Source: a virus
Length of the DNA: 64,000 bases
Virus record (IMG/VR): IMGVR_UViG_3300030331_006142
Location: 32,001-96,000 of that record
Reading direction: 5' to 3' (one strand)
The position numbers and the translations under genes are program-made. This document shows positions 4,487-63,425 of the stretch, piece by piece. Each line of letters starts with the position of its first letter. Within the stretch, counting starts at the first letter, position 1. Below the pieces are notes generated by a model. That model had not been told where the DNA came from. It ran no database searches and saw only the letters and a program-made list of their open reading frames with translations.

Positions 4487-4797
<311 letters not shown>

Positions 4798-6188: not shown

Positions 6189-9100
6189 TCAAGTACTTTG
6201 TTCTGAACTTTCTGTACCCTGAGCTGCTTTTTCGTATTCATCATTGGTAGGTTCTTCAATGTTTTTAGCCATTTCTCTGTCCCATTTATCGTGGTAAAGC
6301 TTTAAATTTGCTATTAAATAATCATAAAACATTTCTTGGTCTTCTGCGTTGTCAAGCTCTCCATAATAATCAATAATAGACTTTTCTATAGAAGGATAGA
6401 CTCTTTCAGCTTTGTTTCTCCCGGTGGTATCTTCACCTGAAATGGATGTTAAACCTTCTTTCTCTTCTTTATCGTTGGTTGGCGTTTCTTTTTCTGAGCC
6501 GTCATTAGCATCAATAAATTTTTCTGCATCAACGCCCTCTATATCTACTCCAACTTCTTCTGAAAGTTGTGCAACTGCATCAGGTGAGCCAATAGAATCT
6601 GTGTCGTTTAGCTTAACGGGCGCTAGAGTATCTTGAACCCATTGTATCATATGTGCTCTAAAGGACTTTCTTTGGTCATCAGAGGTTGTTAGAGTCTTGT
6701 AAACCTGTCTAATTGTAGAAAGGACGTTTGTATTTTTAAGTAAGTCCTTAAGAGTATTGATGCCGGTATTATCATGAATATCTGTATTTGGGTCTTCTGC
6801 AGCGGCCTCTAATATTAGCTCTCTTAGTGATAATCGCAACATATGCTCTTGAATAACATAATCGATGATTTCATTATTTTCTTTTGCTTTTAAATCAAAA
6901 AACTCTTTAATACCGATTCTTAAAGTTTTTCTAAGTTTTCTTTCTTCTTTCATATCTTCATCCTTTTTATATATTTTTCCAAAAGGCCCAGCAAAACCAG
7001 CTAAATTTCCACCAGCATTTGAACTCATCTCTTCTAATTCATCCTGCTCTTCTGCTAAGAATGCATTTGAAATATTTTTTGGCCGGCCGTGCTTGAAGGC
7101 TCCGCCATGTTTTGTTAAATCTTTTCTACCCATATCTAAATAGGTCCTGTGAGCTTTCGCAAGCCTTTTTCTCATTCGTTTCTGAAATGCGCTCGAAGAG
7201 GGCTTTGCTTTTGGGGCATGCTGTGCTTTAAAACCCTCTTGTAGCATTTTCCTTAGCGAGTCTTCAATAATTTCTCGAAGGCCGCCAGCGTCAATTTCCG
7301 GTTCCTCAACTTGGTCTTCTTCTGGTTGGTTTTTATCTGCCGCATTTATTCCTAAGATTCCCATTACTGCGATGGCGTCTTCTGGGCGAGGAACAAAATC
7401 TTTTAACATTTGAAGACCTACTGGGTCACTAGCTGCAACATCAACTATAAACCTCATATCTGAAGCGTGGAAATCAGAAGAATCTACACTAGATTTTGTA
7501 GCTGACGGAATTCGAGAGTTTATATGAGGATGAGAAGATAATGTATTCATATATTCTTCACTATGCTTAGCTGATAAGTCACAAACATGGATTTTTATTT
7601 TTAAATCATTTCGGGCCTTGCTAATTATTGTTTGGTAACGAGACTGGTCGTCCTCTTTATCGCCGCAGCCCAATATTACAGTGCTGCCTTTCGGGGCAAC
7701 CAAATCATTACCCGGTTGCGGTTCCTTCATTACAAAATCATAAGTTACGCCAACAGGACTAGCAGCAGGAGATTGAATTATCTCGGTTTTTGAACCAGCT
7801 GGTGATTTATCTAGGAAAGCTCGCCATATTTGCTCAGCATGATTTGAATCAACAATTTTTCCTGAGAGCGGCAAAGTGCGGCCGCCTTTAGTTGGTTGAG
7901 AGATAATTATGATTACCTTATCGGCAATTTCGGCTAATTGTTCAACCATATTTAAGTGGCCTTTATGAGGAGGCTTGAATGCCCCAGGCACGACAGCTAC
8001 TCTAGAAGGCCCAGAATTGTCTTTTAACGCCTCTTCTTCTTCATCTTGAGCATCGATAGGACCAAAGCGCTGAAAGCGCTCCATACCTAAAATTTGATTG
8101 GTAGGAGCAAAGTTTCCAGTAAACTTATACGTCACTCCATTAAAATCGAACACAAAACCCTCTGATGGAGTATTAATGCCTCCAACATCTTTGAGTTTTA
8201 TCATTTGCTTTTCCAGTTCGGCTTGGGCTCTTTCATTGTTCCCATTTTTTATTCTAGATATTGTACTCTCTACCTCATCTTGAAGAAACTTAATTTGCTT
8301 TTCATTATCGTTTATAAAAGAAGAATCTATTGTGCCAACCATAGCAACAGAAAAGTCATGAAGAACTCTTTGTAAATCCAGAGTGTAACTAGCATAATTA
8401 AATGCCCTCACATAAGAAGAGACACTCTGCTTAATATTAGTGGGCATGCCCCGAGTTACATCATTGACACCAGGTACCTTACCAGATGCTGCAGGAATTC
8501 TCATAACTCTTTGTAATAACAATCTACTAGTTGCATCATCAAGATTAAATTGGTCTATTTCTGGTTTTACCTGTCCAATTACATAATCGTTTATTGTGTC
8601 CCCATCAGACACACCAATATCAGACATTAAATTACTGACTTTTTCCATTGTGCTTCGTAAAACAGATTTATCCTGGAGGGGTGGTAATTTTCTAACGGGG
8701 TTTGTCTCTACGGAAAAAATACTTGGGTCCTCTGTGGCAGAATCAACAAAGGCCCTATCAAGAAGTTCAAAATTCGCGGTAATATCTAAATCTGTCTTTT
8801 TGCCAGTTTGTTTATCAAACTGGGCATGCCCAACTCTGTGAATAAGCAAAGTTTTTTTATCATAGGGGATGACGTTTGTTGTACCCGCCCCGCGCGGGTC
8901 TCCCTCTTCGGTGTCCGGGTTTCCTGGATTCATAACCTCAGTATTAAAAAACACACTAGCATCGGGCCCAAATATTTTTTCTTGAGTATCAATATCTAGC
9001 TTTTTTACTTCTTCTTCAAAGGCTCCCAACGCCTCAACGAAACTATATCGCAGCGCTTGGCTTGGGTGATTCGCGAAGAAAGAATCCAATTCGTCAGCAT

Positions 9101-27620: not shown

Positions 27621-27884
27621 TCACAACAGTTCCTCGCCGGCGCGGAAGATTCTAAATTTATGACGGTTGTTAATAATATTCATTCCACTAAATCCACAGT
27701 CAGGAATGTACCCTGGTACACTCGGACCTTGCCAGGTCACAAAAACCTTCTCACTATGCCCCCATGCGTTTGGTTCAATAGATGTAACAAGGCAAACATA
27801 ATCAATGTCATTGGTCAAGCCGACAGGCACCATACTCTTGACAATCAACATATCACCAAGCCGTGGAGTTCTGGTTGAGTTCAT
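27621..27884 (-). CDS. Hypothetical SH3-like protein
   Basis: RLGDML...VFVTW. Confidence 0.65.
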   Translation of the reverse strand: MNSTRTPRLGDMLIVKSMVPVGLTNDIDYVCLVTSIEPNAWGHSEKVFVTWQGPSVPGYIPDCGFSGMNIINNRHKFRIFRAGEELL

Positions 27885-28084: not shown

Positions 28085-28351
28085 TTATTTTTTTCGCGAA
28101 AGGACATCGCCTTTTGTTTCAATTTTTCGCAGCCACGTTGGATGAATATGATATTTCTGGAAATCACTCTCTTCGCCAAAACAGATAACTTCAAAAATAT
28201 TATCTTTTGTTGTTGGGATGCACTTTACAATATATCCGATTTTGCCGTGACCGGGAATGAGGGTGTTAAATTCAGGACTTAAGTCTGAATGGTCCCATAT
28301 CTGAACCATCGCTCCAGGCTTCAACTGCTCGTAGTGTGATTGTCTGGTCAT
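28085..28351 (-). CDS. Hypothetical SH3-like protein
   Basis: LKPGAMV...IGYIV. Confidence 0.65.
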   Translation of the reverse strand: MTRQSHYEQLKPGAMVQIWDHSDLSPEFNTLIPGHGKIGYIVKCIPTTKDNIFEVICFGEESDFQKYHIHPTWLRKIETKGDVLSRKK

Positions 28352-28537: not shown

Positions 28538-28747
28538 TTATCCTTGGTTCTCGTATGAATCCCAAATGTCAAACGCATCAACCTCGGTATCTTTGATTAC
28601 CTGATTGATTCGTTTAAGCAAATGCGCACAGGCTTCCATTATACCTTCTTGTGTATCGAGTCTATCTTCCCACTGTTTTTTCGTTAAGTCTGAATCAATC
28701 GAGAACGCGATTGATAATGCGTGATTATATTTTTTCTTGTCACTCAC
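28538..28747 (-). CDS. Hypothetical protein
   Basis: ORF in early operon. Confidence 0.65.
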   Translation of the reverse strand: MSDKKKYNHALSIAFSIDSDLTKKQWEDRLDTQEGIMEACAHLLKRINQVIKDTEVDAFDIWDSYENQG

Positions 28748-28959
28748 TTACAACTCCTACACACATGACCGCCAAACTCTGGCTTCTTTACATTCGGGAA
28801 ATACTCGTGACAATAAATGCAGTCAACACCATAAATGTTTGCGCCTGCATAGTGACCACTGTCACGCTCGAAACGAAGTCGATTAGACCTCGCGATAAAT
28901 CTCATTCTTGCTTTGCCAGCCATAGAAAAATAACCTTTCTTGATTGTTTCTACTCTTAT

Positions 28960-28988
28960 AGTATAGCAGCTAAACTAATGAAAGTCAA
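28960..28988 (-). promoter_or_regulatory. sigma70-type promoter
   Basis: TTGACT-N17-TATACT. Confidence 0.7.
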
Positions 28989-29179
28989 GAACTTTTTACA
29001 ATTTTTAAGTCGTAATCCCAAACATTATTTCCAATGGTTCCGTCGCGCCACAAGACTCTGTACTCATTATTGTTATATCTGTGTATCAAAAAACGAGTAC
29101 TAAATCCAAGAATGATTCCATACCTTTCTGCACCGTGGCGACTTGGATGATTGTCTTTAACTAAATCACCGACTTTCAC
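28985..29179 (-). CDS. MKVGDLV mini-protein (array A)
   Basis: GTG start inside junction repeat. Confidence 0.85.
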   Translation of the reverse strand: MKVGDLVKDNHPSRHGAERYGIILGFSTRFLIHRYNNNEYRVLWRDGTIGNNVWDYDLKIVKSS

Positions 29180-29339
29180 TGATTCTCCTGATAACGCTCA
29201 CATGATAAGAGCACCGAATCGGGCTGTTGTCGTCACAGAACTGGACAAGATAACACCTGTTTTGTTCCGCCTTAGCAACGATTATCCCAATACGATTAAC
29301 ATAAGAGTTATCGACCCTCACTAAATCACCGACTTTCAC
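29166..29339 (-). CDS. MKVGDLV mini-protein (array A), 57 aa
   Basis: Manual translation MKVGDLVRVDNSY...RRISESR. Confidence 0.8.
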   Translation of the reverse strand: MKVGDLVRVDNSYVNRIGIIVAKAEQNRCYLVQFCDDNSPIRCSYHVSVIRRISESR

Positions 29340-29502
29340 TGATTAACTCCAAGGAAAAAGTGTAGTGATGAAAGACCTCACTGCCCCTATCGAGCCAAAT
29401 AACATCGCATATGTCGACGTCAACATACGTCTCGACTACAATACCCACTATGCGGTGCTTTTTTGGTATATCAATATGGTGGACCAAATCACCGACTTTC
29501 AC
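29326..29502 (-). CDS. MKVGDLV mini-protein (array A), 58 aa
   Basis: Manual translation MKVGDLVHHID...LELISESR. Confidence 0.8.
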   Translation of the reverse strand: MKVGDLVHHIDIPKKHRIVGIVVETYVDVDICDVIWLDRGSEVFHHYTFSLELISESR

Positions 29503-29638
29503 TGATTAGCTCCAAGTCACATTGCTCGACGCGGAATTCCCCGTCAGGGAATAATACATAAAAACCATGCGGAACAACTTTGGTGATAACTCCAAGACCA
29601 TCCCAGCTAACCTGCTTTACCAAATCACCGACTTTCAT
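29489..29638 (-). CDS. MKVGDLV mini-protein (array A), 49 aa
   Basis: Manual translation MKVGDLVKQVSW...LELISESR. Confidence 0.8.
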   Translation of the reverse strand: MKVGDLVKQVSWDGLGVITKVVPHGFYVLFPDGEFRVEQCDLELISESR

Positions 29639-29844
29639 TCTGGGTGCTTCCTCAACCATCTAAGCAAGCGAACGTCAATAGTTCTGGGGCTTGTCTCCCC
29701 AAGTAACAGAACCTTGTGGTTCTGTATGACCACACCGTCGTCACGATGAATGAAAGCCTCACCCAGATAGACAGCCACTTTATCATTGATATCGCGCGTG
29801 TGCCCGTTAATACGGTCGAACTTTACTAAATCACCGACTTTCAT
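29635..29844 (-). CDS. MKVGDLV mini-protein (array A)
   Basis: ORF track. Confidence 0.85.
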   Translation of the reverse strand: MKVGDLVKFDRINGHTRDINDKVAVYLGEAFIHRDDGVVIQNHKVLLLGETSPRTIDVRLLRWLRKHPE

Positions 29845-30031
29845 TTACCAACTCCAATGTTTGCATCCTATACGTGCGCTGACCATACTTTGTAGCCACA
29901 TGAACATCGGGATTGGGGTTCCATTTAATCTCCTCTGAGTCTTTGAAACTTTCATTCCAACCTAACGACACCACAATCCCGGTCAGGGCCGGGTACGTAC
30001 CGTACACCTTGACCAAGTCACCGATTTTCAC
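29831..30031 (-). CDS. MKIGDLV mini-protein (array A)
   Basis: Start reassigned to GTG 30031; ends LELVNESR. Confidence 0.8.
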   Translation of the reverse strand: MKIGDLVKVYGTYPALTGIVVSLGWNESFKDSEEIKWNPNPDVHVATKYGQRTYRMQTLELVNESR

Positions 30032-30185
30032 TGATGACCTCCAGATTCGCCGCGGGGGCATTTTCGCGTTGACCGGTATCGACAAACATTATCTTAGCAT
30101 AACTCCGATGCAAGGCAACTAATAATGCCAGTCTGCCTGAGTCCCGGCAAAGATGATTGAGTCTTACCAAATCACCGACTTTCAT
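30018..30185 (-). CDS. MKVGDLV mini-protein (array A), 55 aa
   Basis: Manual translation MKVGDLVRLNH...LEVISENR. Confidence 0.8.
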   Translation of the reverse strand: MKVGDLVRLNHLCRDSGRLALLVALHRSYAKIMFVDTGQRENAPAANLEVISENR

Positions 30186-30363
30186 TGACTACAGTTAAAT
30201 CCTTTTTCCTAATTGACAACGTAGCGCCGTTATCTTTGTTCCATCTAACTACTACCAGATAATCAGCATGAGGGTCGGGGCGAATTACCAGGCCATACCA
30301 GTTCTTCCACCTGTCGTGGACTCTTCCCTCTGGGGTATATCTTACCAAGTCCCCGACTTTCAT
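30172..30363 (-). CDS. MKVGDLV mini-protein (array A)
   Basis: ORF track; ends VVNESR. Confidence 0.85.
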   Translation of the reverse strand: MKVGDLVRYTPEGRVHDRWKNWYGLVIRPDPHADYLVVVRWNKDNGATLSIRKKDLTVVNESR

Positions 30364-30450
30364 ATTATTGCCACCGATAGCATCACGGCAAATGCAATAA
30401 CTAGAATTGGAAACATTACAGCTATAATAATTTCCATAATTGCAATCTTA

Positions 30451-30633
30451 TCATCGTCTTTCACTGATTAACTCGCAACCACTTGTGACATACCAAACAA
30501 CTTCTCCTCTGGTGTTGAGGGCTTTGAGTGTTCCACCGTTCTGATTACTATACAGAATCACACCAATATCACTACTGTTCGGTGTGCGATATATGACAAA
30601 GTCGCCAGGCTTAAATTTCACCATTATCTCCAA
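30451..30633 (-). CDS. Diverged member of the mini-protein family
   Basis: FKPGDFV...ELISERR. Confidence 0.7.
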   Translation of the reverse strand: MEIMVKFKPGDFVIYRTPNSSDIGVILYSNQNGGTLKALNTRGEVVWYVTSGCELISERR

Positions 30634-30854
30634 ATAGTCACAAAATGACCAAATTCTCTATCAAAAACCTTCACAAGGCCCTCATAATTACCCATCATCA
30701 TTACCTTACAGATAGCAGCAATCCTTTCTTCTGAGTACCCTAGTTGTCTACCAAACGTATGCACATACGCCATAAGGGCATGGGCGTTACCATCTGGTCC
30801 TGTAAGGTCAATCTCTATTGGCCTGTGTGGCATCTCTTCTTTGCTGCGAATCAT
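30624..30854 (-). CDS. Small phage protein
   Basis: IDLTGPDGNA motif, recalled from other phage proteins. Confidence 0.75.
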   Translation of the reverse strand: MIRSKEEMPHRPIEIDLTGPDGNAHALMAYVHTFGRQLGYSEERIAAICKVMMMGNYEGLVKVFDREFGHFVTIWR

Positions 30855-31051
30855 CTTCCAACGTGCCTCGCGGTCTGCACCGAGCCAACATACTGGTAGG
30901 CTCCCTTGTTATAAGCAGGTGCAGAGCATTTTGCTTTACGGGCCTTTTCGCGGTTGGCAGCGTGGGCGCCACAGTCAAGACAAGTTCTGTAGCCCAGTTC
31001 GAGGCGCCTTGGGTTAAAAGATTCATAACAGATAATGCAAGTAGGATTCAT
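30851..31051 (-). CDS. DksA/TraR-type C4 zinc-finger mini-protein
   Basis: CIICYESFNPRRLELGYRTCLDC. Confidence 0.65.
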   Translation of the reverse strand: MNPTCIICYESFNPRRLELGYRTCLDCGAHAANREKARKAKCSAPAYNKGAYQYVGSVQTARHVGR

Positions 31052-31078
31052 GGTTATCTCCAGATTATTACTATATAT

Positions 31079-31107
31079 AGTATATCAGCTAAGTGCCTAA
31101 AAGTCAA
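31079..31107 (-). promoter_or_regulatory. sigma70-type promoter
   Basis: TTGACT-N17-TATACT. Confidence 0.7.
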
Positions 31108-31358
31108 GGCTTTTTTTTAGCATATTTCAGGTCGCGACGGTCAAAGTATGATTCCCAATAATAATAATTTCCGCGTGTTGCATATTCTCGTTTCTGCGAG
31201 TGATTAAACACAGATTTACACCAAAGAATCTTGTAAGTTCCACAGAAATATGCGCCTCGAACTTCTTTGATAATTCCAACGTCACCATCTCTAATCCAGC
31301 CTGTTCTTTTTATCTTCTTACCATAAGAAGATAATGTAACCAAGTCACCGACTTTCAC
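31104..31358 (-). CDS. MKVGDLV mini-protein (array B)
   Basis: ORF track; similar to 37539-37763. Confidence 0.85.
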   Translation of the reverse strand: MKVGDLVTLSSYGKKIKRTGWIRDGDVGIIKEVRGAYFCGTYKILWCKSVFNHSQKREYATRGNYYYWESYFDRRDLKYAKKKP

Positions 31359-31539
31359 TGATAACCTCCGCTTGTGATTCCCAGAGTGGACCCATCAAAG
31401 TGGGGAATGTTGGAGAACGGGCATCCCATAAGACTTTGAATAGTCTCCTGCGAGATGACAGTGGGCGAGGAACTTCTGCCACGACAATACCAACTCTTTC
31501 CATCCCCCAACTCTCTTTTACCAAATCACCGACTTTCAT
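31345..31539 (-). CDS. MKVGDLV mini-protein (array B)
   Basis: Ends EVISESR overlapping next start. Confidence 0.85.
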   Translation of the reverse strand: MKVGDLVKESWGMERVGIVVAEVPRPLSSRRRLFKVLWDARSPTFPTLMGPLWESQAEVISESR

Positions 31540-32978: not shown

Positions 32979-33203
32979 TTACGCTAATTTTATTCTTTTG
33001 TCAAGCTTTTTTGCGGTTTTTGTTGAGATTATTTTCCAGCGGTGAGAAGGCCACCATCTAGCATTTCCACTATTATCTAATACCAATATATCATTGACAG
33101 AATCATTGGTCTCCAGCACAAGACCCCATGACATTAGGGATTCCCACTCGTTGGTATTTGTGATATAGCAGGCTACTAAATCGCCGCGGCGCATAAGACT
33201 CAT
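32979..33203 (-). CDS. RxGDLV SH3-like mini-protein
   Basis: MRRGDLV...WGLVL. Confidence 0.65.
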   Translation of the reverse strand: MSLMRRGDLVACYITNTNEWESLMSWGLVLETNDSVNDILVLDNSGNARWWPSHRWKIISTKTAKKLDKRIKLA

Positions 33204-33985: not shown

Positions 33986-35224
33986 TTAATCTACAGCCAC
34001 TACCCTCTCTTTGGTTTCAAAGAAAGGGCGGGATGCATGGCGCTGCGTTGTCATCCACATACGCTGGCACTTGCTTCGTTTGGGCTTGGGGGCACACATG
34101 TCTGTTAAAACAATGTGGCCATCGAAGTTACCATTGTTGACGTACTCCGTGGGAGCGTCAAAGCATGTGCCGCCCGAAAGGACACGTTCGGTTTTTCTTT
34201 TCTGGCCCTTTTTCCATGTAAAGACCTTCGATTCGTCAACTCTTGTATCAAAAGGGACGACCACAAATTCTGCAATCTCTGCCAATTTTCCGAGTTCTGC
34301 AAAGAACTTCCCCAGCATCGTGTCGTCAACTGAGCCTGACTGGTCGATGCTGACAGCTATTCGGGCCGTTCTGTTACTTTTCTTGCCTGGATGGATATAC
34401 GCGTATCTACGATTAATTCTCTTTATCGAGCTGGACCTGTTTGCTCGCTGACTGGCTTTGACAAAAAATCTGAGGACCTTTCGCCAATCTACTTTTGTCT
34501 CTAGGGCCTTCATAACTTCACTTCTCACGGAAGCCGAGACGGAACCCCACGAGTTGTTTTTGGAGCACTCCTCGCCGGCCTTCTTGACTATCTCCTTGAG
34601 TCTTTGGTTGGCTACGTCCTTGGCCTCTTGGGGGCATTTGCCCCAGCCGCTATGGTCGTCTAGGGTATCAATCTCGTCAAGCAAATCCTCAAGCGTCTGT
34701 GGTTTTTTCCCGCTTGGCTGGCCTTCTCCTGAACCTGAAGGAACGCCTTGAGCAGAGTCCGGGTCGGAATCTTGGATTTCACCCTCTTCTTTGCTGGTCC
34801 TCTTCTTTGGAAGGTTTGCAAGATACCACTCTGCGCTTTCTCCGCGAGGGAAATCCTTGAAAAGCCCCTCTCCAGGGATGAGTCCACCCTCCGGTAAGTT
34901 GTCCAAGTGCGAGTTTATAGCCAAGTCTGCTGCAATGTTCCACCTCTTCACAGGTACCCCCTCCGGCATGCGACCAGTCACATGAAGAAATACAACGTGA
35001 TAAAATTCATGTTTTAGGACATCTCTCCTCTCTGCGTCTGTTAGCTTTTGGAAGAACTCCGGGTTGTAAAGCATTTCAAATTGGCTGGTGTCGGGATTAA
35101 CCATAACTCCAGCCGTTGGAATTGCAAAGGTGGCGCGCTTATCAATCCGTCGCGAGATTGATGCAAAAAACGGCTCGTCCATAAGCAGCCGTGCGGTGTG
35201 CATGTTAAGGTCAAAGCTAGTCAT
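33986..35224 (-). CDS. Metallopeptidase + VWA-like protein (DUF2201 type)
   Basis: HEFYH, NIAADLAIN, MIDAS-like DQSGS, GGT.F, VLTD. Confidence 0.9.
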   Translation of the reverse strand: MTSFDLNMHTARLLMDEPFFASISRRIDKRATFAIPTAGVMVNPDTSQFEMLYNPEFFQKLTDAERRDVLKHEFYHVVFLHVTGRMPEGVPVKRWNIAADLAINSHLDNLPEGGLIPGEGLFKDFPRGESAEWYLANLPKKRTSKEEGEIQDSDPDSAQGVPSGSGEGQPSGKKPQTLEDLLDEIDTLDDHSGWGKCPQEAKDVANQRLKEIVKKAGEECSKNNSWGSVSASVRSEVMKALETKVDWRKVLRFFVKASQRANRSSSIKRINRRYAYIHPGKKSNRTARIAVSIDQSGSVDDTMLGKFFAELGKLAEIAEFVVVPFDTRVDESKVFTWKKGQKRKTERVLSGGTCFDAPTEYVNNGNFDGHIVLTDMCAPKPKRSKCQRMWMTTQRHASRPFFETKERVVAVD

Positions 35225-35235
35225 AGTATATCCCC

Positions 35236-36294
35236 TTACTTGGAATCGCCTGCAAGAATCTTAACCAAGTAGTCAGAAACAGAATCTCCGTCTACTTCTG
35301 ATTGGTGGAGCTTGATTGTGTTGTTGATTTCTCCATTACCCAATACAGACCACAACTTCATAGCGACCTCAGAGGGCAGCGTAATAAAGTATCTTGCCAG
35401 GTTGTCCACTTGGCCTTGCTCCATCTCTGTCTTGAAAGCATCTGATGCATCGAACTTATCAATCAGCGCAGTGTGGTCATTGATGCCAAAATCAGCAACC
35501 TTACTCAGCTTGCCATGAACAAGAATGTCCTCGACTGTTACCTGTCTATCGTAATTTTGAACAAAGTCGTTGAACGAAACGGCGGCTTCAAAGCCGACGA
35601 ACGCGGACGTCAAAGTATATAGCGCAGGACTAGCCTCCTCCAAAAGGTTGGCTTGCTGCAGGCACTCATCAAGTCGTTCCCAGGAGCGGCGACTAGGATA
35701 GACCTTGTTGGGTTCGTGGTCGTCTGTGTGCTCAAGGTGCGCCCGGTTTTGGTTAATGAAGTCCCAAGTAATATCTGAAACAGAGTTGTCCTTAGCCCAG
35801 GTCAACCAGTCCTCGACACTAGGCTCGACGTCGAACACAGTCCAGCGGTCGAGTTCGGCTGGGTCCATCTCACCAACTTGGTACTGTGAACCGTGTTCAC
35901 CACCATTCACGGCGGCGAATACAAGCGTGTCCTCGTGTAGTGTATGACCATTGAGCTTGCGACTGTCGGTTAACTCGAAGATGCCTTGACGAACTTCGAT
36001 AGTGGCTCGGTCAACTTCGTCGAGAAACAAAACAACAGGCTTGTCGCAAGCAGTCTTGAACCAGTCTGGTGGATTGAAGCGAGTCGAGTTACCTTCGATA
36101 GAAGGTAAACCAACCAAATCACCCTCGGTCATCTGTGATGCGCGGCGTTCTACGACAGGCAAACCCATGTTATCAGCGAACTGATAAACTACTGTAGATT
36201 TACCAATACCATGACGACCTCGTAACAAGACAGGCTTGCGTACATTGGTAACGTGGTGAACGATGTTTGAGAATGTTGCGAAGTCAACTGCCAT
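35236..36294 (-). CDS. MoxR/dynein-related AAA+ ATPase
   Basis: GRHGIGKS, LFLDEVDR, AAVN, DPAELDR, PSRRSW. Confidence 0.92.
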   Translation of the reverse strand: MAVDFATFSNIVHHVTNVRKPVLLRGRHGIGKSTVVYQFADNMGLPVVERRASQMTEGDLVGLPSIEGNSTRFNPPDWFKTACDKPVVLFLDEVDRATIEVRQGIFELTDSRKLNGHTLHEDTLVFAAVNGGEHGSQYQVGEMDPAELDRWTVFDVEPSVEDWLTWAKDNSVSDITWDFINQNRAHLEHTDDHEPNKVYPSRRSWERLDECLQQANLLEEASPALYTLTSAFVGFEAAVSFNDFVQNYDRQVTVEDILVHGKLSKVADFGINDHTALIDKFDASDAFKTEMEQGQVDNLARYFITLPSEVAMKLWSVLGNGEINNTIKLHQSEVDGDSVSDYLVKILAGDSK

Positions 36295-37050: not shown

Positions 37051-37269
37051 TTAATCAAAATGCTTTAGCCACTTTGCTCTGACCCAGCGGTCGTCGCCGT
37101 TGATAAAGCGAACCATGCAATGGTATTCATCAATATGCCAGAGACACTGTTCAGTGCTGGTGACATAATTGTTTATTAATTCTGCTTTGACGACAATTCC
37201 TGCTGTTTGTTTTTGGTCTTTTTCCAGGGGACAATAAACTAAGTCCCCAATGTCAAACTTCTGCCTCAT
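37051..37269 (-). CDS. IGDLV SH3-like mini-protein
   Basis: FDIGDLV...AGIVV. Confidence 0.7.
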   Translation of the reverse strand: MRQKFDIGDLVYCPLEKDQKQTAGIVVKAELINNYVTSTEQCLWHIDEYHCMVRFINGDDRWVRAKWLKHFD

Positions 37270-37341: not shown

Positions 37342-37542
37342 TCATTGCGGGTTGACCGGGCGCAGCTCGGCTAACTGATACCAATCTCTTTGGGAAGTTG
37401 TATGGTTTAGCCATCTGACCCTGTAACCGTATGTGGTCGGGTGGCCAAGGTGGTCTGCCAGGTCAATATTTAGCAGAACTCCAAGCAGAACAGAGCTGTT
37501 GGTAGCTTTGCAGTAGAATCTCACCAAATCTCCAACCTTCAC
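37342..37542 (-). CDS. MKVGDLV mini-protein (array C)
   Basis: ORF track. Confidence 0.8.
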   Translation of the reverse strand: MKVGDLVRFYCKATNSSVLLGVLLNIDLADHLGHPTTYGYRVRWLNHTTSQRDWYQLAELRPVNPQ

Positions 37543-37763
37543 TGTTGCCTCTTTCGCCGGGCGTAAGCCAGTTCTCTTCGTGAGTGATTATCGTTGGGAG
37601 TAAGACCGTTCTGGGGCTTTGACCACCTAACCTGATAGGGGTACATACCTTTGTGGATAGCTATAACTAAGCCTAGCTGGCTTGCATCCCGCAATGTAAT
37701 TCTTTTATTGTAATTGCGCAGCTTTCCATAAGCTGAGAGCTTAACCAGGTCGCCCACCTTCAT
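37539..37763 (-). CDS. MKVGDLV mini-protein (array C)
   Basis: Start reassigned to ATG 37763. Confidence 0.8.
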   Translation of the reverse strand: MKVGDLVKLSAYGKLRNYNKRITLRDASQLGLVIAIHKGMYPYQVRWSKPQNGLTPNDNHSRRELAYARRKRQQ

Positions 37764-39912: not shown

Positions 39913-40167
39913 TTAGTGATGACCAGGATACATGGTCTGCATCGCATGGTAGCAGTCTGCCGCATCGACTCGGCTTGGGTTTCTCTTTGTGTTGTCAACC
40001 AATCTAAGATTAGCATATACTTTCTTGTTCTTAATATCCAAATCTAGACCCACCACTCGCCCAATATATGAGTAGCCCGACATCCTTACTCTAACCCTGT
40101 CACCCGCCTTGATTTTATTAGGGTTCCATTGGTCAAACAATTTTTCAATGTCTCTGTTTGATACCAT
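39913..40167 (-). CDS. KOW/SH3-like hypothetical protein
   Basis: IKAGDRVRV...IGRVV. Confidence 0.7.
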   Translation of the reverse strand: MVSNRDIEKLFDQWNPNKIKAGDRVRVRMSGYSYIGRVVGLDLDIKNKKVYANLRLVDNTKRNPSRVDAADCYHAMQTMYPGHH

Positions 40168-40223: not shown

Positions 40224-40232
40224 GAAAAAAAG

Positions 40233-40314
40233 TAGCTAGGGCGGGACTCGAACCCGCATACCCGGAGGCGGCAGATTTTAAGTCTGCTGTGTATACCAAT
40301 TCCACCACCTAGCC
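40233..40314 (-). tRNA. tRNA-Leu(TAA)
   Basis: Cloverleaf; GCAGA-CT-TAA-AA-TCTGC; long variable arm; CCA not encoded. Confidence 0.93.
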
Positions 40315-40318
40315 ATGT

Positions 40319-40395
<77 letters not shown>

Positions 40396-40404
40396 ATATA
40401 ATTA

Positions 40405-40476
40405 GGCGTGTGGTGAGAATCGAACTCACATCATCAGCTTGGAAGGCTGAGGTAATGGCCGTTATACGACACACGC
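40405..40476 (-). tRNA. tRNA-Gly(TCC)
   Basis: TCAGC-CT-TCC-AA-GCTGA; CCA not encoded. Confidence 0.92.
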
Positions 40477-40483
40477 GTGATTG

Positions 40484-40556
40484 TGGAGCATCTGGGACTC
40501 GAACCCAGAACCAGCGGATTAAAAGTCCGATGCGCTGCCAATTGCGCCAATGCTCC
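40484..40556 (-). tRNA. tRNA-Lys(TTT)
   Basis: CGGA-CT-TTT-AA-TCCG; acceptor GGAGCAT/ATGCTCC. Confidence 0.92.
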
Positions 40557-40705: not shown

Positions 40706-40915
40706 TCATACTGATTTCTCTACTTTTCTCAAGGAATGGCCGCCAGTCCAGAAGACACCATAGTCGTCTGCCCAGCGGACCCTATAAGTTGGTTCTGACA
40801 CGGCGCCATCGACGCCCCAGCGCTCCTGAATATCGATGATGATACCAACCCGGAGATAGTGGGGGCTGTCCTCGATAAGCCCATCTCGCTTCATTACTAA
40901 ATCACCGACTTTCAC
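40706..40915 (-). CDS. MKVGDLV mini-protein (array D)
   Basis: ORF track. Confidence 0.85.
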   Translation of the reverse strand: MKVGDLVMKRDGLIEDSPHYLRVGIIIDIQERWGVDGAVSEPTYRVRWADDYGVFWTGGHSLRKVEKSV

Positions 40916-41075
40916 TGATTAGCTCCAATTCTCTTTTGTGCAAGAAAACAATTGTGCCAGAATTCAACAATACATCGTAATACATACCATCTCCACTCAA
41001 CATACTGTAGACTAATCCATATTTGTTGCCATGATATATCTTCGGTAGAATCCTGACTAAATCACCGACTTTCAC
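40902..41075 (-). CDS. MKVGDLV mini-protein (array D), 57 aa
   Basis: Manual translation MKVGDLVRILPK...LELISESR. Confidence 0.8.
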   Translation of the reverse strand: MKVGDLVRILPKIYHGNKYGLVYSMLSGDGMYYDVLLNSGTIVFLHKRELELISESR

Positions 41076-41265
41076 TTATAACTCCTATGCTTGGATGTCC
41101 TTGACTGAACCACCCATTACCATCTCCAGTTTGCCACACAATGAAAACCTGGTCTCCATCCGGATGGGTTATAATCTTCTGGACAAGCCCAAAGTCCACC
41201 TTAACATGGTTTTCTCCCAAATATTTATACTCAGCGTACCACTGAACCAAATCACCGACTTTCAC
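41062..41265 (-). CDS. MKVGDLV mini-protein (array D)
   Basis: Ends GVISESR. Confidence 0.85.
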   Translation of the reverse strand: MKVGDLVQWYAEYKYLGENHVKVDFGLVQKIITHPDGDQVFIVWQTGDGNGWFSQGHPSIGVISESR

Positions 41266-41440
41266 TGATAACCTTCAGTGCTTTGTAACTCCACAATCTT
41301 TTGCCCTGCGCGGTGATGACGTGAACGTCAGGATTCAAGAACGCACTCTCATCATAACTCGGGCACTTACCAGCATAACCTAGGCCGGTCACGATTCCTG
41401 TGTGGCCTTGCCCATTTCTAACTAAATCACCGACCTTCAC
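41252..41440 (-). CDS. MKVGDLV mini-protein (array D)
   Basis: Ends KVISESR; shares NPDVHV core with 29831-30031. Confidence 0.85.
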   Translation of the reverse strand: MKVGDLVRNGQGHTGIVTGLGYAGKCPSYDESAFLNPDVHVITAQGKRLWSYKALKVISESR

Positions 41441-41624
41441 TTATAACCTCCAAGTCCTCGACCCAGTCCCAATCTCTTTGAATCCCGCATGTCCTGCGCT
41501 TTGGTGGCCACAGTACACGAACTCTATCACCAGATGGAATCCTTAAAAACTCTACAGCACATCCAACTAGGCCCTGCAAGCCAGTGTGGTAACTCCTGTA
41601 TTTGACCAAATCACCGACCTTCAC
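41427..41624 (-). CDS. MKVGDLV mini-protein (array D)
   Basis: Ends EVISEGR. Confidence 0.85.
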   Translation of the reverse strand: MKVGDLVKYRSYHTGLQGLVGCAVEFLRIPSGDRVRVLWPPKRRTCGIQRDWDWVEDLEVISEGR

Positions 41625-41811
41625 TTATCACCTCCATCTCTAAATCTCCCCAATCAAAGGATTCTTGTGTATAAGTCTCAACATCTCCGTCGCAGAAGAG
41701 CATTGTCCATTCAAGTCGGCCAGGATACGATGGTGGGTGGTCAGAATCTATCACGAGGGCGTAGTAAACACCTTCTGCGAAGCCTAGTTTTACTAAATCA
41801 CCGACTTTCAT
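41611..41811 (-). CDS. MKVGDLV mini-protein (array D)
   Basis: Start reassigned to ATG 41811 after AGGAG. Confidence 0.85.
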   Translation of the reverse strand: MKVGDLVKLGFAEGVYYALVIDSDHPPSYPGRLEWTMLFCDGDVETYTQESFDWGDLEMEVISEGR

Positions 41812-41832
41812 TTGTCTTCTCCTGAAGCGTAG

Positions 41833-41906
<74 letters not shown>

Positions 41907-42000: not shown

Positions 42001-42198
42001 TCATTGTACCACCTTGGTAAGCATATGTCTAGGAAAATCTTGAACTTTTGCATGCTCATCCCATGTAATATATATTCTGAACCAGTCTTCGTCGATTTGA
42101 GAGAAGACGACGCCCTTAGTTTGGTTAGGGAGTGGCTTGATTTGTTTGCTAGACACAACGTAAACCAAATCTCCAACTTTTACAGGCGACATCAACAC
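42001..42198 (-). CDS. VKVGDLV mini-protein
   Basis: ORF track. Confidence 0.7.
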   Translation of the reverse strand: MLMSPVKVGDLVYVVSSKQIKPLPNQTKGVVFSQIDEDWFRIYITWDEHAKVQDFPRHMLTKVVQ

Positions 42199-42581: not shown

Positions 42582-43261
42582 TTTTTTGCCCTCTTTAGGT
42601 CAGACTCATGAGCGTAGATGGGAGCCACCTCTCCTGTAAGTAGTACCTGATACATTCTGGAACCCCTAGCTGCGCGAGTTACTGGTCTTGCATCTGTCTT
42701 AATAACAAAGCCTACCTTGTCAACCATCTTACGACGGACAGACCTGTTGGGATATGAGAAGCCATCATCAGATACATTAGCAATGTCAATCTTGTTGGTT
42801 GCTCTGATTTGCACGGTATCTCCAACATTGAATTTTAACTCTTCTTCATAGTTCTTCAGGACTTTCAAGGAATACTTATTGTTGGTAAACTTTAAGAAAT
42901 CCGATTCGACAAAGAAGAAATTATCTTTGTCCGATAAGGCTTCATCAACAAGAGGTCTATAATAGGGCGGATTGGCTTTGTAGTAGTATGCAACTTTTAG
43001 ACAAAGGTCTCTGTGATAATCTGACCAACATTCTTTCCAGTATTGCTTCTCTGCTATAACCACATCAGTATACTTTGCTTCGATTTTGTCTATTGTCCTG
43101 ATTTGGCTTTCCGAAAGATAATCTCGTTTTTTGCTTTGCTCAAGCACAGACTCAAGAAAGCCCTTTTCCCACATATCTTCTTGTGGTTCCGAGTTCTCAT
43201 ACACTCGGTCGAGTAAACATTCCAGTTGAAATGTGGTCGGAGTGTTCTTGGCCTGGTTCAT
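42566..43261 (-). CDS. Hypothetical protein with C-terminal SH3-like module
   Basis: FNVGDTVQIR...VGFVI...YQV...ESDLK. Confidence 0.75.
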   Translation of the reverse strand: MNQAKNTPTTFQLECLLDRVYENSEPQEDMWEKGFLESVLEQSKKRDYLSESQIRTIDKIEAKYTDVVIAEKQYWKECWSDYHRDLCLKVAYYYKANPPYYRPLVDEALSDKDNFFFVESDFLKFTNNKYSLKVLKNYEEELKFNVGDTVQIRATNKIDIANVSDDGFSYPNRSVRRKMVDKVGFVIKTDARPVTRAARGSRMYQVLLTGEVAPIYAHESDLKRAKKCKIK

Positions 43262-43452
43262 GGGTTCACCTTCTTAAGAGAAGACCTCATGACCTTCAAT
43301 GCTCTACTTTGCCCTGCCCAGAGAACAGTAACAATAGCATCGCCGCTAAAAATATTTGACTCAATAACTTCAACAAGAACACCAGGCTTCGCATTACGAG
43401 TGCTATTGGTGCCAATAACTAAGTCACCAGCTTTCATCCAAAACTCCTTCAT
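43258..43452 (-). CDS. MKAGDLV mini-protein
   Basis: ORF track; upstream TTGACA-N17-TATTAT. Confidence 0.7.
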   Translation of the reverse strand: MKEFWMKAGDLVIGTNSTRNAKPGVLVEVIESNIFSGDAIVTVLWAGQSRALKVMRSSLKKVNP

Positions 43453-45918: not shown

Positions 45919-46349
45919 TCTTCAGATATTTCCAAGGCGCCAAAATTGTTCGCGGTGTCGGTCAGGCGCCATCCGTATTCTTCTACAATTTTTTCTACAA
46001 TTTTTCTCATTTTGTCTGACTTTCCTGTCACTATCTTGCATGGAAGCTCAACAAAGTTCAAGAATTCTCTCACTTTTTCATCCACCTTGTCGTGCTGAGT
46101 ACCGTGCAAATCTAACATGCGGTCTGTTCTTTTTTTTCTTCTTCTTTTTGTGTTCGCATATCTTACATCAACGTCTGGGAGCTTTTTGCTGTCAATTGAG
46201 TTCCAGACATGTGCTTTTGAAGTTCTACAAACCCTTTCGCGAAAAAAATAATATACGTAACCCTTTGTTACCTTAGTCACGACCCCAGCATTTTCGCCTG
46301 CTACTAAAAGGTCTCCTTTTTTTAATTTATACAGTTTCATCACTCTCAC
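45915..46349 (-). CDS. Smr-domain protein with N-terminal SH3-like module
   Basis: LDLHG...KIVTGKS...NFGAL. Confidence 0.75.
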   Translation of the reverse strand: MRVMKLYKLKKGDLLVAGENAGVVTKVTKGYVYYFFRERVCRTSKAHVWNSIDSKKLPDVDVRYANTKRRRKKRTDRMLDLHGTQHDKVDEKVREFLNFVELPCKIVTGKSDKMRKIVEKIVEEYGWRLTDTANNFGALEISEE

Positions 46350-46638
46350 CTATTTTTGGAAGCTCCAACTTGAAAAGCCAGTTTGTAGAAACTAGCCCCG
46401 ATGTATCACTAATTTTATTTTTCTTTGAAACCATCTTCTTAAAAAAAAATTCATGGGCTGTGTTTGGCAACATCTGCACTACTGCCACTTCGCGGTGGTT
46501 TCTGTTTTTTCCACTTTCATTATACCCATAAACATCAACTATGTCAAGAAGAATCCCAATCCAAACTTTTCCGTAAAGAACGTGATATACAAGGTCACCT
46601 ACCTTGAGTTCTCTGATTTTCGATTTCTTGCTCTGCAT
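46327..46638 (-). CDS. LKVGDLV SH3-like protein
   Basis: ORF track. Confidence 0.7.
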   Translation of the reverse strand: MQSKKSKIRELKVGDLVYHVLYGKVWIGILLDIVDVYGYNESGKNRNHREVAVVQMLPNTAHEFFFKKMVSKKNKISDTSGLVSTNWLFKLELPKIGESDETV

Positions 46639-52051: not shown

Positions 52052-53617
52052 CTAGTGGACTATGCTGTGATTAGTCAACAAAAGGGTACCGGCAACAGAG
52101 ACTGCATTCTTTAATGCACATCTCGTAACCTTGGCAGGGTCAATAATGCCTGACTCGAAAAGATTTTCTTTTTTTCCTGTTAGAAAATTGAACCCCTCCA
52201 TATCTCCGCACTCACCAATTGTGATGCTTAAGACTTCTGGATTGTGCCCTGCGTTTTGAGCCATTGTGCTAAAGGGGGACTGCAAGGCCTTTTTGAAGAT
52301 TCCCAAGGAAGCTGCCTGCTCTTCGTTATCAAAATCTATATCCATAGCCTGCGAAATGTGAAGCAATGTCATGCCTCCTCCCAATACAATGCCCTCTTGT
52401 TGTGCAGAGTTGACTGCCTCGAGGGCGTCCTCAATCCGATGCTTTTTTTCAATGAGCTCTACCTCAGAATTTGCTCCAACCCTAATAATAGCAACGCCAG
52501 AAGAGAGACGAGTGATTCTGTCTTGCAGCCGTTGAGCTGCATGTAGGTCGTCAGTATCATTGATTTCATTTTTAATCTCCTCAATTCTATTCTCGACAAG
52601 TTCGTAGTCACCCTCGCCATCGACAACAGTTGTTCTGTTCTTGGCAATCTCGATAGATGCTGCCTGGCCGAAGTCAGTAAGTGACACCTCTGTTACTTTG
52701 TGACCTAGAGACTGCTGAAAGAATTTTGCCCCTGTTGCTGTTGCAAGGTCTGACAGGATACCTCTGCGGTCTTCTCCATAACTTGGAGCCTTGACTGCTG
52801 CCACCTTCATCGAGCCACGAATAGTGTTCATGATAAGGGCGGCGAGAGCTTGTCCCTCAATCTCATCTGCGATAATAATAAATGGTCTGCCTTCCCTTGC
52901 TGCTATCTCTAGGGCTGGGAGGATATCGTTTACTTGGTCAATCTTACTATCTGTGATAAGAAACATAGGATTGTCATACTTTGCCAAGCCTCTACGCTCA
53001 TCAGTCACGAATGCTCTAGCGGCATAGCCAGACTGAAACTTGAAACCCTCAACAAGTTCAAGCTTTGTTTCATGAGACTTTGCGTCCTCAACAGACACAG
53101 AGCCGTTCTTACCAATCTTATCTACCGCTGTTGCGATTAGGTCTCCGATAACTTTATCATTGTTGGCAGAGATAGTAGCAACGTGTCGGATATCCTCGAC
53201 AGATGAGATAGGCTTTGCTAAATCAGCAATGCCCTCACAGGCGACCTCACAGCACTTCTCCAGCCCACGTTTAATTTCGATAGGACTAACGCCACTCTCG
53301 ATGTGTTTGTGAGCCTGTCGTAGCAGTTCTCGGGCTAGAATAGTGCTTGTGGTCGTGCCGTCGCCTGCTTCGGCGTTAGTCATGGCAGAAACCTGCTTTA
53401 CAACTTCTGCCCCAGCATTCATAAACGGGTCTTCGAAACTCATATTCTGAGCAACTGTGACTCCGTCTTTTGTAATGAAGGGTCTCTTATCTTTTTGCTG
53501 GATAAGAACATTTTGTCCCTTGGGGCCAAGGGTAGCCGCAACATAATCGGCAAGGGTGTTCACCCCTTCTAGGACTTTGTTGCGCAAAGCCCAGCCGTTC
53601 TCTAGTTTAGTAGTCAT
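52052..53617 (-). CDS. groEL: Chaperonin GroEL
   Basis: TLGPKG, TKDGVTVA, GDGTTT, KAPSYG, GIIDPAKV; lacks GGM tail. Confidence 0.97.
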   Translation of the reverse strand: MTTKLENGWALRNKVLEGVNTLADYVAATLGPKGQNVLIQQKDKRPFITKDGVTVAQNMSFEDPFMNAGAEVVKQVSAMTNAEAGDGTTTSTILARELLRQAHKHIESGVSPIEIKRGLEKCCEVACEGIADLAKPISSVEDIRHVATISANNDKVIGDLIATAVDKIGKNGSVSVEDAKSHETKLELVEGFKFQSGYAARAFVTDERRGLAKYDNPMFLITDSKIDQVNDILPALEIAAREGRPFIIIADEIEGQALAALIMNTIRGSMKVAAVKAPSYGEDRRGILSDLATATGAKFFQQSLGHKVTEVSLTDFGQAASIEIAKNRTTVVDGEGDYELVENRIEEIKNEINDTDDLHAAQRLQDRITRLSSGVAIIRVGANSEVELIEKKHRIEDALEAVNSAQQEGIVLGGGMTLLHISQAMDIDFDNEEQAASLGIFKKALQSPFSTMAQNAGHNPEVLSITIGECGDMEGFNFLTGKKENLFESGIIDPAKVTRCALKNAVSVAGTLLLTNHSIVH

Positions 53618-63184: not shown

Positions 63185-63425
63185 TTGCAATTACGGCCTC
63201 CAAATCAGACTTAATCAAATTAAGGTCTTCTAGAATTTCTTCTTGTTTTTGTTTGTTTTGCACAATTCCACCAAACAAGTCACGAAAAAATAACTGCTGG
63301 TCTGTGCTCATTGTAGCAAAAGTAAGTGGCAGCTTGGCTGCTTCCTTCGTGTGATATGCCAAGTCATCGTAGACTTGCTCTAATGTTTCTCTATCTTTCA
63401 TTTTTTTCCTTTCAGGATTTTTCAA
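63171..63425 (-). CDS. Hypothetical protein
   Basis: Coupled ORF. Confidence 0.65.
   Translation of the reverse strand: MKNPERKKMKDRETLEQVYDDLAYHTKEAAKLPLTFATMSTDQQLFFRDLFGGIVQNKQKQEEILEDLNLIKSDLEAVIANVQK

Follow-up and report, generated by a model that had tools for sequence, protein, structure and literature searches.

Tandem arrays of predicted SH3-like mini-genes joined by a dual-coding junction differ by whole cassettes among related marine phages

A 64,000-nucleotide (nt) stretch of viral DNA (hereafter the window), bases 32001-96000 of the 130,653-base contig IMGVR_UViG_3300030331_006142 (CheckV completeness 72%), was found to carry tandem arrays of mini-genes in which one short repeat, the junction, forms both the end of one gene and the beginning of the next. 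The source is an uncultured marine myovirus-like phage with a genome of about 180 kb. The arrays of related phages differ by whole genes, referred to here as cassettes, and the edges of these differences lie in the junction. We regard the arrays, with a probability of roughly 0.7, as translationally coupled and probably early genes, with a functionally conserved junction that doubles as a short stretch of homology for cassette shuffling.

The 20-mer GTGAAAGTCGGTGATTTRGT (up to three mismatches) is present in 18 copies in the window, all on the minus strand, compared to 0.01 expected from shuffled sequences, and every copy in the contig falls inside the window. Read on the minus strand, the junction ..TTG GAG NTN ATC AGT GAA AGT CGG TGA encodes LE.ISESR-stop, the tail of the upstream gene, and the overlapping frame GTG/ATG AAA GTC GGT GAT TTR GT encodes the MKVGDLV of the next gene, with GGAG 7 nt ahead of its start codon. 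A 14-nt overlap is found at twelve of the window's junctions, where the upstream gene ends in ...LE(V/L)ISESR-TGA 14 nt inside the next one; internal genes begin, usually at GTG, 11 nt ahead of the TGA of the preceding gene, and their ribosome-binding site is the GGAG(G) within the upstream Leu-Glu codons. The triple function proposed in an earlier reading of the window (the sequence-only reading), namely upstream C-terminus and stop, ribosome-binding site, and downstream start and N-terminus, is apparent at these junctions. Its view of a repeat array with unique sequence in between agrees with the finding that, between cassettes of different types, the 40 nt after the junction are 28% identical compared to 70% for the 40-nt junction itself.

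A hidden Markov model (HMM) of the family identified 22 members in the window, all on the minus strand, 49-84 amino acids (aa) long and beginning with (M)KVGDLV, which form two tight arrays (A, 28985-31539; B, 40706-41811) together with singles and pairs. The sequence-only reading had recognized eight members at 28985-30363, and eight starts are indeed located there (30363, 30185, 30031, 29844, 29638, 29502, 29339 and 29179; spacing 136-206 nt), but this span was too narrow, as array A reaches 31539 and array B and the singles lie elsewhere. The 14-nt overlap is used at six of the eight starts and an ATGA overlap at the other two, 30363 and 29638. The codons GTC GGT GAT are retained where the overlap is unused, at 29638 and 31539, as noted earlier, and at 41811 as well.

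AlphaFold2 modelling of one member (30172-30363), based on an alignment of 133 sequences, gave a mean predicted local distance difference test (pLDDT) score of 87 and five strands (residues 6-9, 23-29, 36-41, 48-52 and 56-58), whereas the last residue block, containing the tail NESR, has low confidence (55) and is disordered in the model. As modelled, this member is a five-stranded SH3-like barrel. Its Foldseek neighbours are Spt5 KOW, PWWP, PsaE, L21e, PetP and HspQ (best E in PDB 3e-3, with no match at E<=1e-3), the TM score to KOW, PsaE and L21e being ~0.65-0.72, and in the viral library it matches only uncharacterised phage proteins. The small SH3-like barrels (Spt5/NusG KOW, PsaE, L21e/L24, PWWP/Tudor) are likewise five-stranded with ~60 residues, and in the family G-x-V comes after the N-terminal G-D-x-V strand, an arrangement similar to the KOW signature. 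The SH3/KOW-like character claimed in the sequence-only reading therefore holds for the predicted fold of this member and not as KOW family membership, since no member reached a Pfam cut-off and none of the 21 members searched matched KOW at E<=1. A single weak match to a PHROG of unknown function (E 0.007) was below cut-off, a profile search against PDB sequences gave a best E of 0.15 (NusG only at E 0.78), and the ESM Atlas provided leads only, SH3-C_UBE2O and DUF4314 (scores 0.88-0.90).

The conserved positions are those of the barrel core, namely K2, G4, D5, V7, one Gly (strand 2), one Trp (strand 3) and the final strand, and the remainder varies freely. The ratio of nonsynonymous to synonymous substitution rates (dN/dS) of cassette interiors has a median of 0.20 (214 same-type pairs from different phages, 76 types) with no value above 1, and these are therefore genuine genes under purifying selection. 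A word-indexed protein search returned 632 proteins at E<=1e-3, and among the 120 of them listed none has a Pfam domain or a name beyond 'hypothetical protein'; an exhaustive search returned 2624 representatives of 50%-identity clusters at E<=1e-3. This is a very large family of uncharacterised mini-proteins, comprising at least 2624 clusters at 50% identity. Neither the MKVGDLV motif nor the family or its arrangement was encountered in the literature searched, which is weak evidence of absence.

Some relatives depart from the single-domain format. P0243, P0225 and P0150 are natural fusions of two domains, the reading frame continuing across the junction from one cassette into the next (e.g. 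...LEVVKQVKVGDLV...), showing that a junction can mutate into a linker. In the long proteins P0171, P0182 and P0226 (654-1156 aa), KVGD.V-type SH3-like repeats occur at least four times, P0226 having in addition a GW domain and a metallopeptidase motif; the domain is therefore related to repeats of larger proteins in other organisms.

Related loci were collected from IMG/VR contigs by an exact 21-mer search and through orthologues of the conserved AAA-type ATPase gene at 35236-36294 (minus strand), which lies between the two arrays, does not belong to the family and serves as synteny anchor. The 21-mer is present in 102 stretches of contigs, many of them 150-235 kb long, and the ATPase orthologue (64-88% aa identity) in 80 loci, including at least a dozen of the 21-mer contigs. 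The comparison set consists of these 80 loci and the window, with a reach of +/-10 kb around the anchor and types defined at 60% identity. Members were found in 76 of the 81 loci, in 0 to 25 copies per locus, and the 729 genes fall into 499 types. The set contains 302 family-family junctions. GGAG(G) is present at -12..-7 in 193 of 227 overlapped junctions, and the consensus at -12..-1 is TGGAGGTNATCA (226 overlapped junctions). It resembles GGAGGTGATC, the extended Shine-Dalgarno complement of the 16S rRNA 3' end. No terminator-like site coincides with a junction, and the strong promoter matches fall outside junctions.

Comparison of the arrays among relatives, set beforehand as the test of the sequence-only reading, revealed that their content is not fixed. 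Almost every phage places a shared type next to different neighbours (the eleven loci with type 0 all flank it differently), and the downstream neighbour is of the same type in only 65 of 434 family pairs (15%) compared to 2100 of 6307 control pairs (33%) and 25% for small open reading frame (ORF) controls. Gene order is discordant in 77/450 family pairs (17%) vs. 369/6759 controls (5.5%) and 19/831 small-ORF controls (2.3%), and the same type is found across the anchor in 97 of 363 pairs (27%), compared to 357 of 4082 for other genes (9%). Blocks of at least 80% identity in blastn alignments tend to end at the junction, left ends at -20..+9 of the junction start codon (115/141) and right ends at +10..+29 (89/114).

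Near-identical phages also differ by whole cassettes. L133 and L134 are 97.6% identical over 5177 nt (anchor gene 100%), and the match stops 11 nt before a junction start codon, upstream of which the cassettes are unrelated. Between L134 and L135 (97.5% identity over 5190 nt) the difference is a single inserted cassette, with ~30 nt of junction common to both edges. The inserted type, f36, lies downstream of the anchor in L135 and upstream of it in L132 and L147. A cassette of L116 matches the window cassette 29166-29339 at 94.7% identity over 190 nt and stands in reversed order relative to the 29326-29502 type. The comparison thus favours the sequence-only reading on its own test, cassette order and copy number varying among relatives with edges in the junction. 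Homogenisation of junctions within a genome was not found (see below).

Three further observations concern array variation. L134 has one cassette type (83% nt identity) in both of its arrays, at 57-258 and 6304-6499, on either side of the ATPase anchor. A member at L129:5629-5827 has a duplicated N-terminus (MKVGDLVVKVGDLV...) due to a 21-nt tandem duplication of the coding half of the junction, which may be a recombination scar. Apparent tandem same-type copies, '66-66' in L129 and '28-28' in L186, were rejected, each being a single ORF with two candidate starts.

Across the clade as a whole the junction is uniform, and codon usage was analysed in an unbiased set of 442 starts from loci picked via a neighbouring gene. 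Much of the conservation results from dual coding and translation signals: start codon and Lys force GAA in the upstream frame, the TGA requires Gly to be GGT, and the Leu-Glu codons hold the GGAG. Non-overlapped copies without the TGA (n=60) have background-like codons (GTC 17, GTT 16; AAA 34, AAG 26), and the 90 non-overlapped copies that retain the TGA have GTC in 62 and AAA in 77 cases, 76 having switched to ATG. GTG is the start codon in 163 of 227 overlapped genes vs. 26 of 148 non-overlapped ones, an enrichment that reinitiation coupling would predict, a strong leader start being followed by weak internal starts. Two preferences have no coding reason in either frame: GTC exceeds GTA 181:19, although either codon preserves Val and Arg and although CGG is used least among the Arg codons, and the Leu codon beyond the overlap is TTR in 91% vs. 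39% in the background. Protein constraint and translation signals together account for much of the repeat conservation, but not for these two preferences, which lack a proven cause. Programmed +1 frameshifting, yielding poly-domain proteins, was considered and rejected by reasoning, as the element resembling a ribosome-binding site is ~14 nt from CGG-TGA and tRNA re-pairing would be poor.

The data show the architecture of the arrays and, by comparison among phages, their shuffling; for coupling, the mechanism of recombination and early timing we infer the following scheme. The arrays would consist of separately translated genes for small SH3-like beta-barrels of 50-85 aa in a variable and probably early-transcribed region. 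The sequence GGAGGTNATCA, located in the last codons of the preceding gene ahead of each internal start, resembles an extended Shine-Dalgarno sequence, and the array would most likely be translated by termination-reinitiation coupling from the ATG-led first gene. Function would be the main reason for the constancy of the junction, which supplies the KVGDLV strand at the N-terminus, the final strand and stop of the gene ahead, and the ribosome-binding site. Since every gene boundary carries the same 15-35 nt, junctions of one genome, or of relatives infecting the same cell, could undergo homologous recombination by which whole cassettes are deleted, inserted, moved or swapped in frame, with the UvsX-like recombinase encoded on the contig as candidate machinery. 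The clade would as a result share a pool of thousands of cassette types, of which every phage has its own assortment. The proteins presumably act early by binding host components; that they bind host proteins in takeover or counter-defence is a guess.

A bolder version of this scheme is that the junction is an evolved plug-and-play adaptor, permitting in-frame exchange via 15-35 nt and giving each phage its own repertoire of early binders directed at host defence or takeover targets. We offer it tentatively, and consider it somewhat unlikely. If true, every recombinant would be correctly translated at once, and the arrays would be a phage counterpart of integron or antigenic-variation cassettes, with a translation signal in place of the recombinase site.

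Several points weigh against shuffling by recombination between junctions. All comparisons rest on metagenome assemblies, and the order and adjacency controls are crude ORF calls, 174 of 2217 of which looked like missed members and had their clusters dropped. Rapid turnover is not universal: four near-identical pairs (L186/L187, L162/L164, L144/L145 and L149/L150) have identical arrays, and a single group of five short contigs (L132-L135 and L137) supplies all nine of the discordant close pairs. The stretches over which two junctions are identical have a median length of 15 nt (95th percentile 25), short enough to be marginal for RecA-type recombination, and selection for intact genes alone would place surviving breakpoints at gene borders, whatever the mechanism. 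Junction similarity within loci (0.707) hardly exceeds that between loci (0.699), and there is therefore no sign of gene conversion within a genome. Finally, junction copies are related by descent, so the significance of the codon and start-count contrasts is inflated.

Some of these points would fit a lineage-specific expansion of paralogs by tandem duplication and loss, with the junction conserved only as dual-coding sequence and ribosome-binding site and the differences between phages reflecting old differential loss. The codons forced by the overlap, the background-like codons of the 60 copies without TGA, the four identical-array pairs and the lack of homogenisation within genomes are all in accordance with this explanation. 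Nevertheless, we consider it unlikely, as differential loss preserves order, whereas 17% of family pairs are discordant compared to 2-5% of controls, and 27% of shared types occur across the anchor, with f36 found on either side. It also does not readily explain a one-cassette insertion or deletion and a whole-array replacement at 97.5% identity over 5 kb with edges inside the junction, and the GTC and TTR preferences go beyond coding need.

Another possible explanation for those preferences is an RNA hairpin, AAUCA-G-UGA-AAG-UCG-G-UGAUU, which would hide the start until melted by the upstream ribosome, so that coupling would be strict and recombination a by-product. The hairpin is present in the minimum-energy fold of five of eight junctions and would account for each unexplained synonymous preference (ATCA spacer, GTC, GAT and TTR) through pairing of the spacer with UGAUU and of the start codon with UCG. 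On the other hand, fold z-scores are weak (-2.1 to +0.5), and most pairs are invariant for coding reasons and thus uninformative. The informative pairs offer little: -4/15 lacks covariation (A-C 49, A-T 128 vs. G-C 17, G-T 56), -2/13 has an A-G mismatch (A at -2, G at 13) in 69 of 282 junctions, and only -5/16 is slightly associated. First-of-array copies keep GTC (62/90) although they have no upstream arm. On balance the hairpin seems improbable as the cause.

Misjoining of cassettes at the repeated junction by short-read assemblers could in principle mimic shuffling, given that all related loci are metagenome contigs, that the contigs of the most variable set (L132-L137) are short (4-8 kb), and that contigs of other runs break or branch at junctions. 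The many 'joints' in contigs of public runs (Logan) match the repeat itself, over sides just 20-33 letters long, and are no proof of rearrangement. However, identical runs between junctions are mostly 11-19 nt and at most 35, and the final k-mer sizes of common assemblers exceed such 11-35-nt runs. Identical arrays of up to 16 cassettes were recovered from separate assemblies (L186/L187, L162/L164), and order differs also between long contigs of 60-190 kb, making an artefact very improbable. It is equally hard to credit a dedicated site-specific recombinase or nuclease targeting the junction (integron-like, or the HNH endonuclease gene at 33986-35224, which adjoins the ATPase anchor between the arrays) instead of general recombination, for although the breakpoints are very precise, homology together with selection for intact genes also yields precision, the 36 large ORFs of the 130.6-kb contig (~72% of the genome) scanned against PHROGs include no integrase or recombinase other than the UvsX-like one, and the junction has no clear inverted-repeat core.

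Shuffling between coupled genes, which we favour, bears comparison with several known systems. In lambdoid phages, boundary or 'linker' sequences have reportedly been proposed as crossover points, in the module theory of Susskind and Botstein and by Clark and colleagues (2001) for HK620. Like the junction, they are described as short conserved gene-border sequences that would serve module exchange; unlike it, they are described as sporadic and as lying between unrelated modules, whereas here joints of 15-35 nt recur regularly every 135-205 nt. In the orphan toxin/immunity arrays of contact-dependent inhibition (CDI) and Rhs systems the cassette reportedly replaces the tip of one large expressed gene, whereas here each cassette is a complete expressed gene, and no toxin/immunity signature was found. 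The likeness to these systems, on which PMC3482391 is one report, is that a conserved peptide-coding motif reportedly borders the variable cassettes and provides homology for swapping. In contrast to integrons, no tyrosine integrase was found among the 36 large ORFs, and the junction has no attC-type repeat or attC-like structure. In keeping with coupled overlapping genes, the start lies within the end of the upstream gene and the ribosome-binding site inside that gene.

The closest comparison is with the promoter-early stem-loop (PeSL) cassettes of T4-type phages. According to two reports (Arbiol et al. 2010, PMC2839356; Comeau et al. 2014, PMC4122927), PeSLs are intergenic elements with a promoter and a terminator, so that every cassette forms a transcription unit of its own; the shuffled ORFs bear no relation to one another, and mini-circles have been shown. 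In both systems, small non-essential genes of hyperplastic regions are bordered by copies of a short conserved functional motif, this motif bounds insertions, deletions and replacements between close relatives (here L133/L134, L134/L135 and the block ends), and homologous recombination between motif copies is the proposed mechanism. The PeSL motif in these texts comprises a sigma-70-like early promoter and a stem-loop terminator, whereas the junction comprises a ribosome-binding site, a start and a stop. It differs in lying inside coding sequence (gene end, ribosome-binding site and next start), formatting translation and keeping frames, and the cassettes are paralogs of one fold, unlike the unrelated ORFans that PeSLs are described as carrying.

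Array A (31539-28985, minus strand) has eleven members, and a promoter-like site, a hydrophobic mini-ORF of 34 aa and two small, unrelated ORFs interrupt it. Its first member (31345-31539, 64 aa, ATG) keeps GTC GGT GAT and an unused TGA and ends in EVISESR, and is followed by an 84-aa member (31104-31358) with a GTG inside the 14-nt overlap and a tail, KYAKKKP, that is not of the junction type. A divergent member (30451-30633, KPGDFV...) ends in ELISERR-TGA, and at this tail the non-family mini-ORF (30360-30464; MKDDDK..., MKDDDKIAIMEIII..., hydrophobic by eye) begins with a 14-nt overlap at a hybrid junction, the first half of which, TTAATCAGTGAAAG, is the family repeat, followed by unrelated sequence; it looks like a foreign gene captured in array format. 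The modelled member (30172-30363, 63 aa, ATG) has GGG in place of GGT and an ATGA overlap with the mini-ORF. It is followed by members at 30018-30185 (55 aa, ATG, 14-nt overlap, upstream tail VVNESR), 29831-30031 (66 aa, GTG, KIGDLV, 14-nt overlap, upstream tail EVISENR) and 29635-29844 (69 aa, ATG, 14-nt overlap), the last of which has a deviant tail of its own, RKHPE. The next member (29489-29638, 49 aa, ATG) has the ATGA overlap and keeps GTC GGT GAT in a frame that is unused, and is followed by two GTG members with 14-nt overlaps, 29326-29502 (58 aa) and 29166-29339 (57 aa), and by the terminal member (28985-29179, 64 aa, tail KIVKSS), which lacks a downstream junction. The terminal type also closes the array in L111, L117 and L120. 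In public run X8 the three terminal cassettes (~28989-29485) have little or no cover, and a 525-nt contig agrees with 28700-28988 apart from one difference and diverges thereafter, which hints at another terminal cassette.

Array B (40706-41811, minus strand) has six members, the first starting with ATG at 41811 and the others with GTG in 14-nt overlaps at 41624, 41440, 41265, 41075 and 40915. It is located between tRNA-Arg (41832-41906) and a cluster of four tRNA genes (40232-40556); the five genes (Leu-taa, Pro-tgg, Gly-tcc, Lys-ttt and Arg-tct) are all on the minus strand, and array B and its flanking tRNAs may be co-transcribed from a promoter-like site at 42031-42003. Outside the arrays, also on the minus strand, there are related single members at 42001-42183 (KVGDLV with GTT GGA codons, start uncertain) and 43258-43437 (KAGDLV), two adjoining members (37539-37763 and 37342-37542, together 37342-37763) with a GTGA overlap and synonymous codons unlike those of the junction (GTG GGC GAC; GTT GGA GAT), and, by the family HMM, one or more further members at 46327-46638. 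Five small minus-strand ORFs with a looser G-D/A-x-V N-terminus (27621-27884, RLGDML; 28085-28351, KPGAMV; 32979-33203, RRGDLV; 37051-37269, DIGDLV; 39913-40167, KAGDRV) were missed by the family HMM at E<=10 and may be more distant SH3-like relatives.

Both arrays have near-consensus sigma-70-like promoters, by consensus match only, ahead of them on the coding strand, at 31894-31866, 31107-31079 and 42031-42003, and the region has 49 promoter-like sites compared to 31.7 +/- 5.6 in shuffles. The match at 31079-31107 (TTGACT-17-TATACT with TG, minus strand) lies ahead of a zinc-ribbon-like ORF and the main block of array A. Two such small Cys-rich ORFs (CxxC...CxxC; 28744-28923 and 30851-31051, minus strand) are each located at the edge of an array block, behind very similar promoter-like sites of this form (28988-28960 and 31107-31079). 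The promoter-like sites, the tRNAs and the many small ORFs make this look like an early, hyperplastic region. A scan with Rfam identified no family within the arrays, and an RNA-library contig from a public run matches 30543-30701 with 0 differences, which is not proof of transcription.

The minus strand carries nearly all long ORFs of the contig, which encodes a DnaE-like polymerase, GroEL, the AAA ATPase and the HNH endonuclease, as well as a tail sheath, a UvsX-like recombinase, DnaB helicase, ribonucleotide reductase and PhoH. A GroEL-type chaperonin (52052-53617) and a DnaE-like Pol III alpha (59756-63190) are thus co-encoded on the minus strand, and besides the five tRNAs there is a one-piece transfer-messenger RNA (4487-4797, minus strand; Rfam RF00023, 128 bits; tag peptide ANDDVENFEDFALAA). 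The polymerase is ~28-31% identical to its nearest counterparts in GenBank phages, ~31% at most, and no GenBank phage is close. The window has no DNA match among GenBank phages, a tblastn search of them with one family member gave no match, and with a 46-nt query from the junction the only identities were 17-18 nt long (E 3-10) and mostly from one Salmonella/Escherichia phage group, which we take as chance.

The arrays suggest that a translation-coupling signal within coding sequence can serve as a recombination joint, such that shuffled genes remain in frame and expressed; the PeSL idea, framed for transcription units, would then apply to translation units as well. Phages carrying the family are met repeatedly in marine viral metagenomes, with up to ~25 copies of it per 21-kb locus, and many of its members are of a size that automatic annotation tends to miss. 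If the proteins bind host factors, the arrays would represent a natural library built on a stable 60-residue scaffold, and a window on the arms races between phages and their hosts in the ocean.

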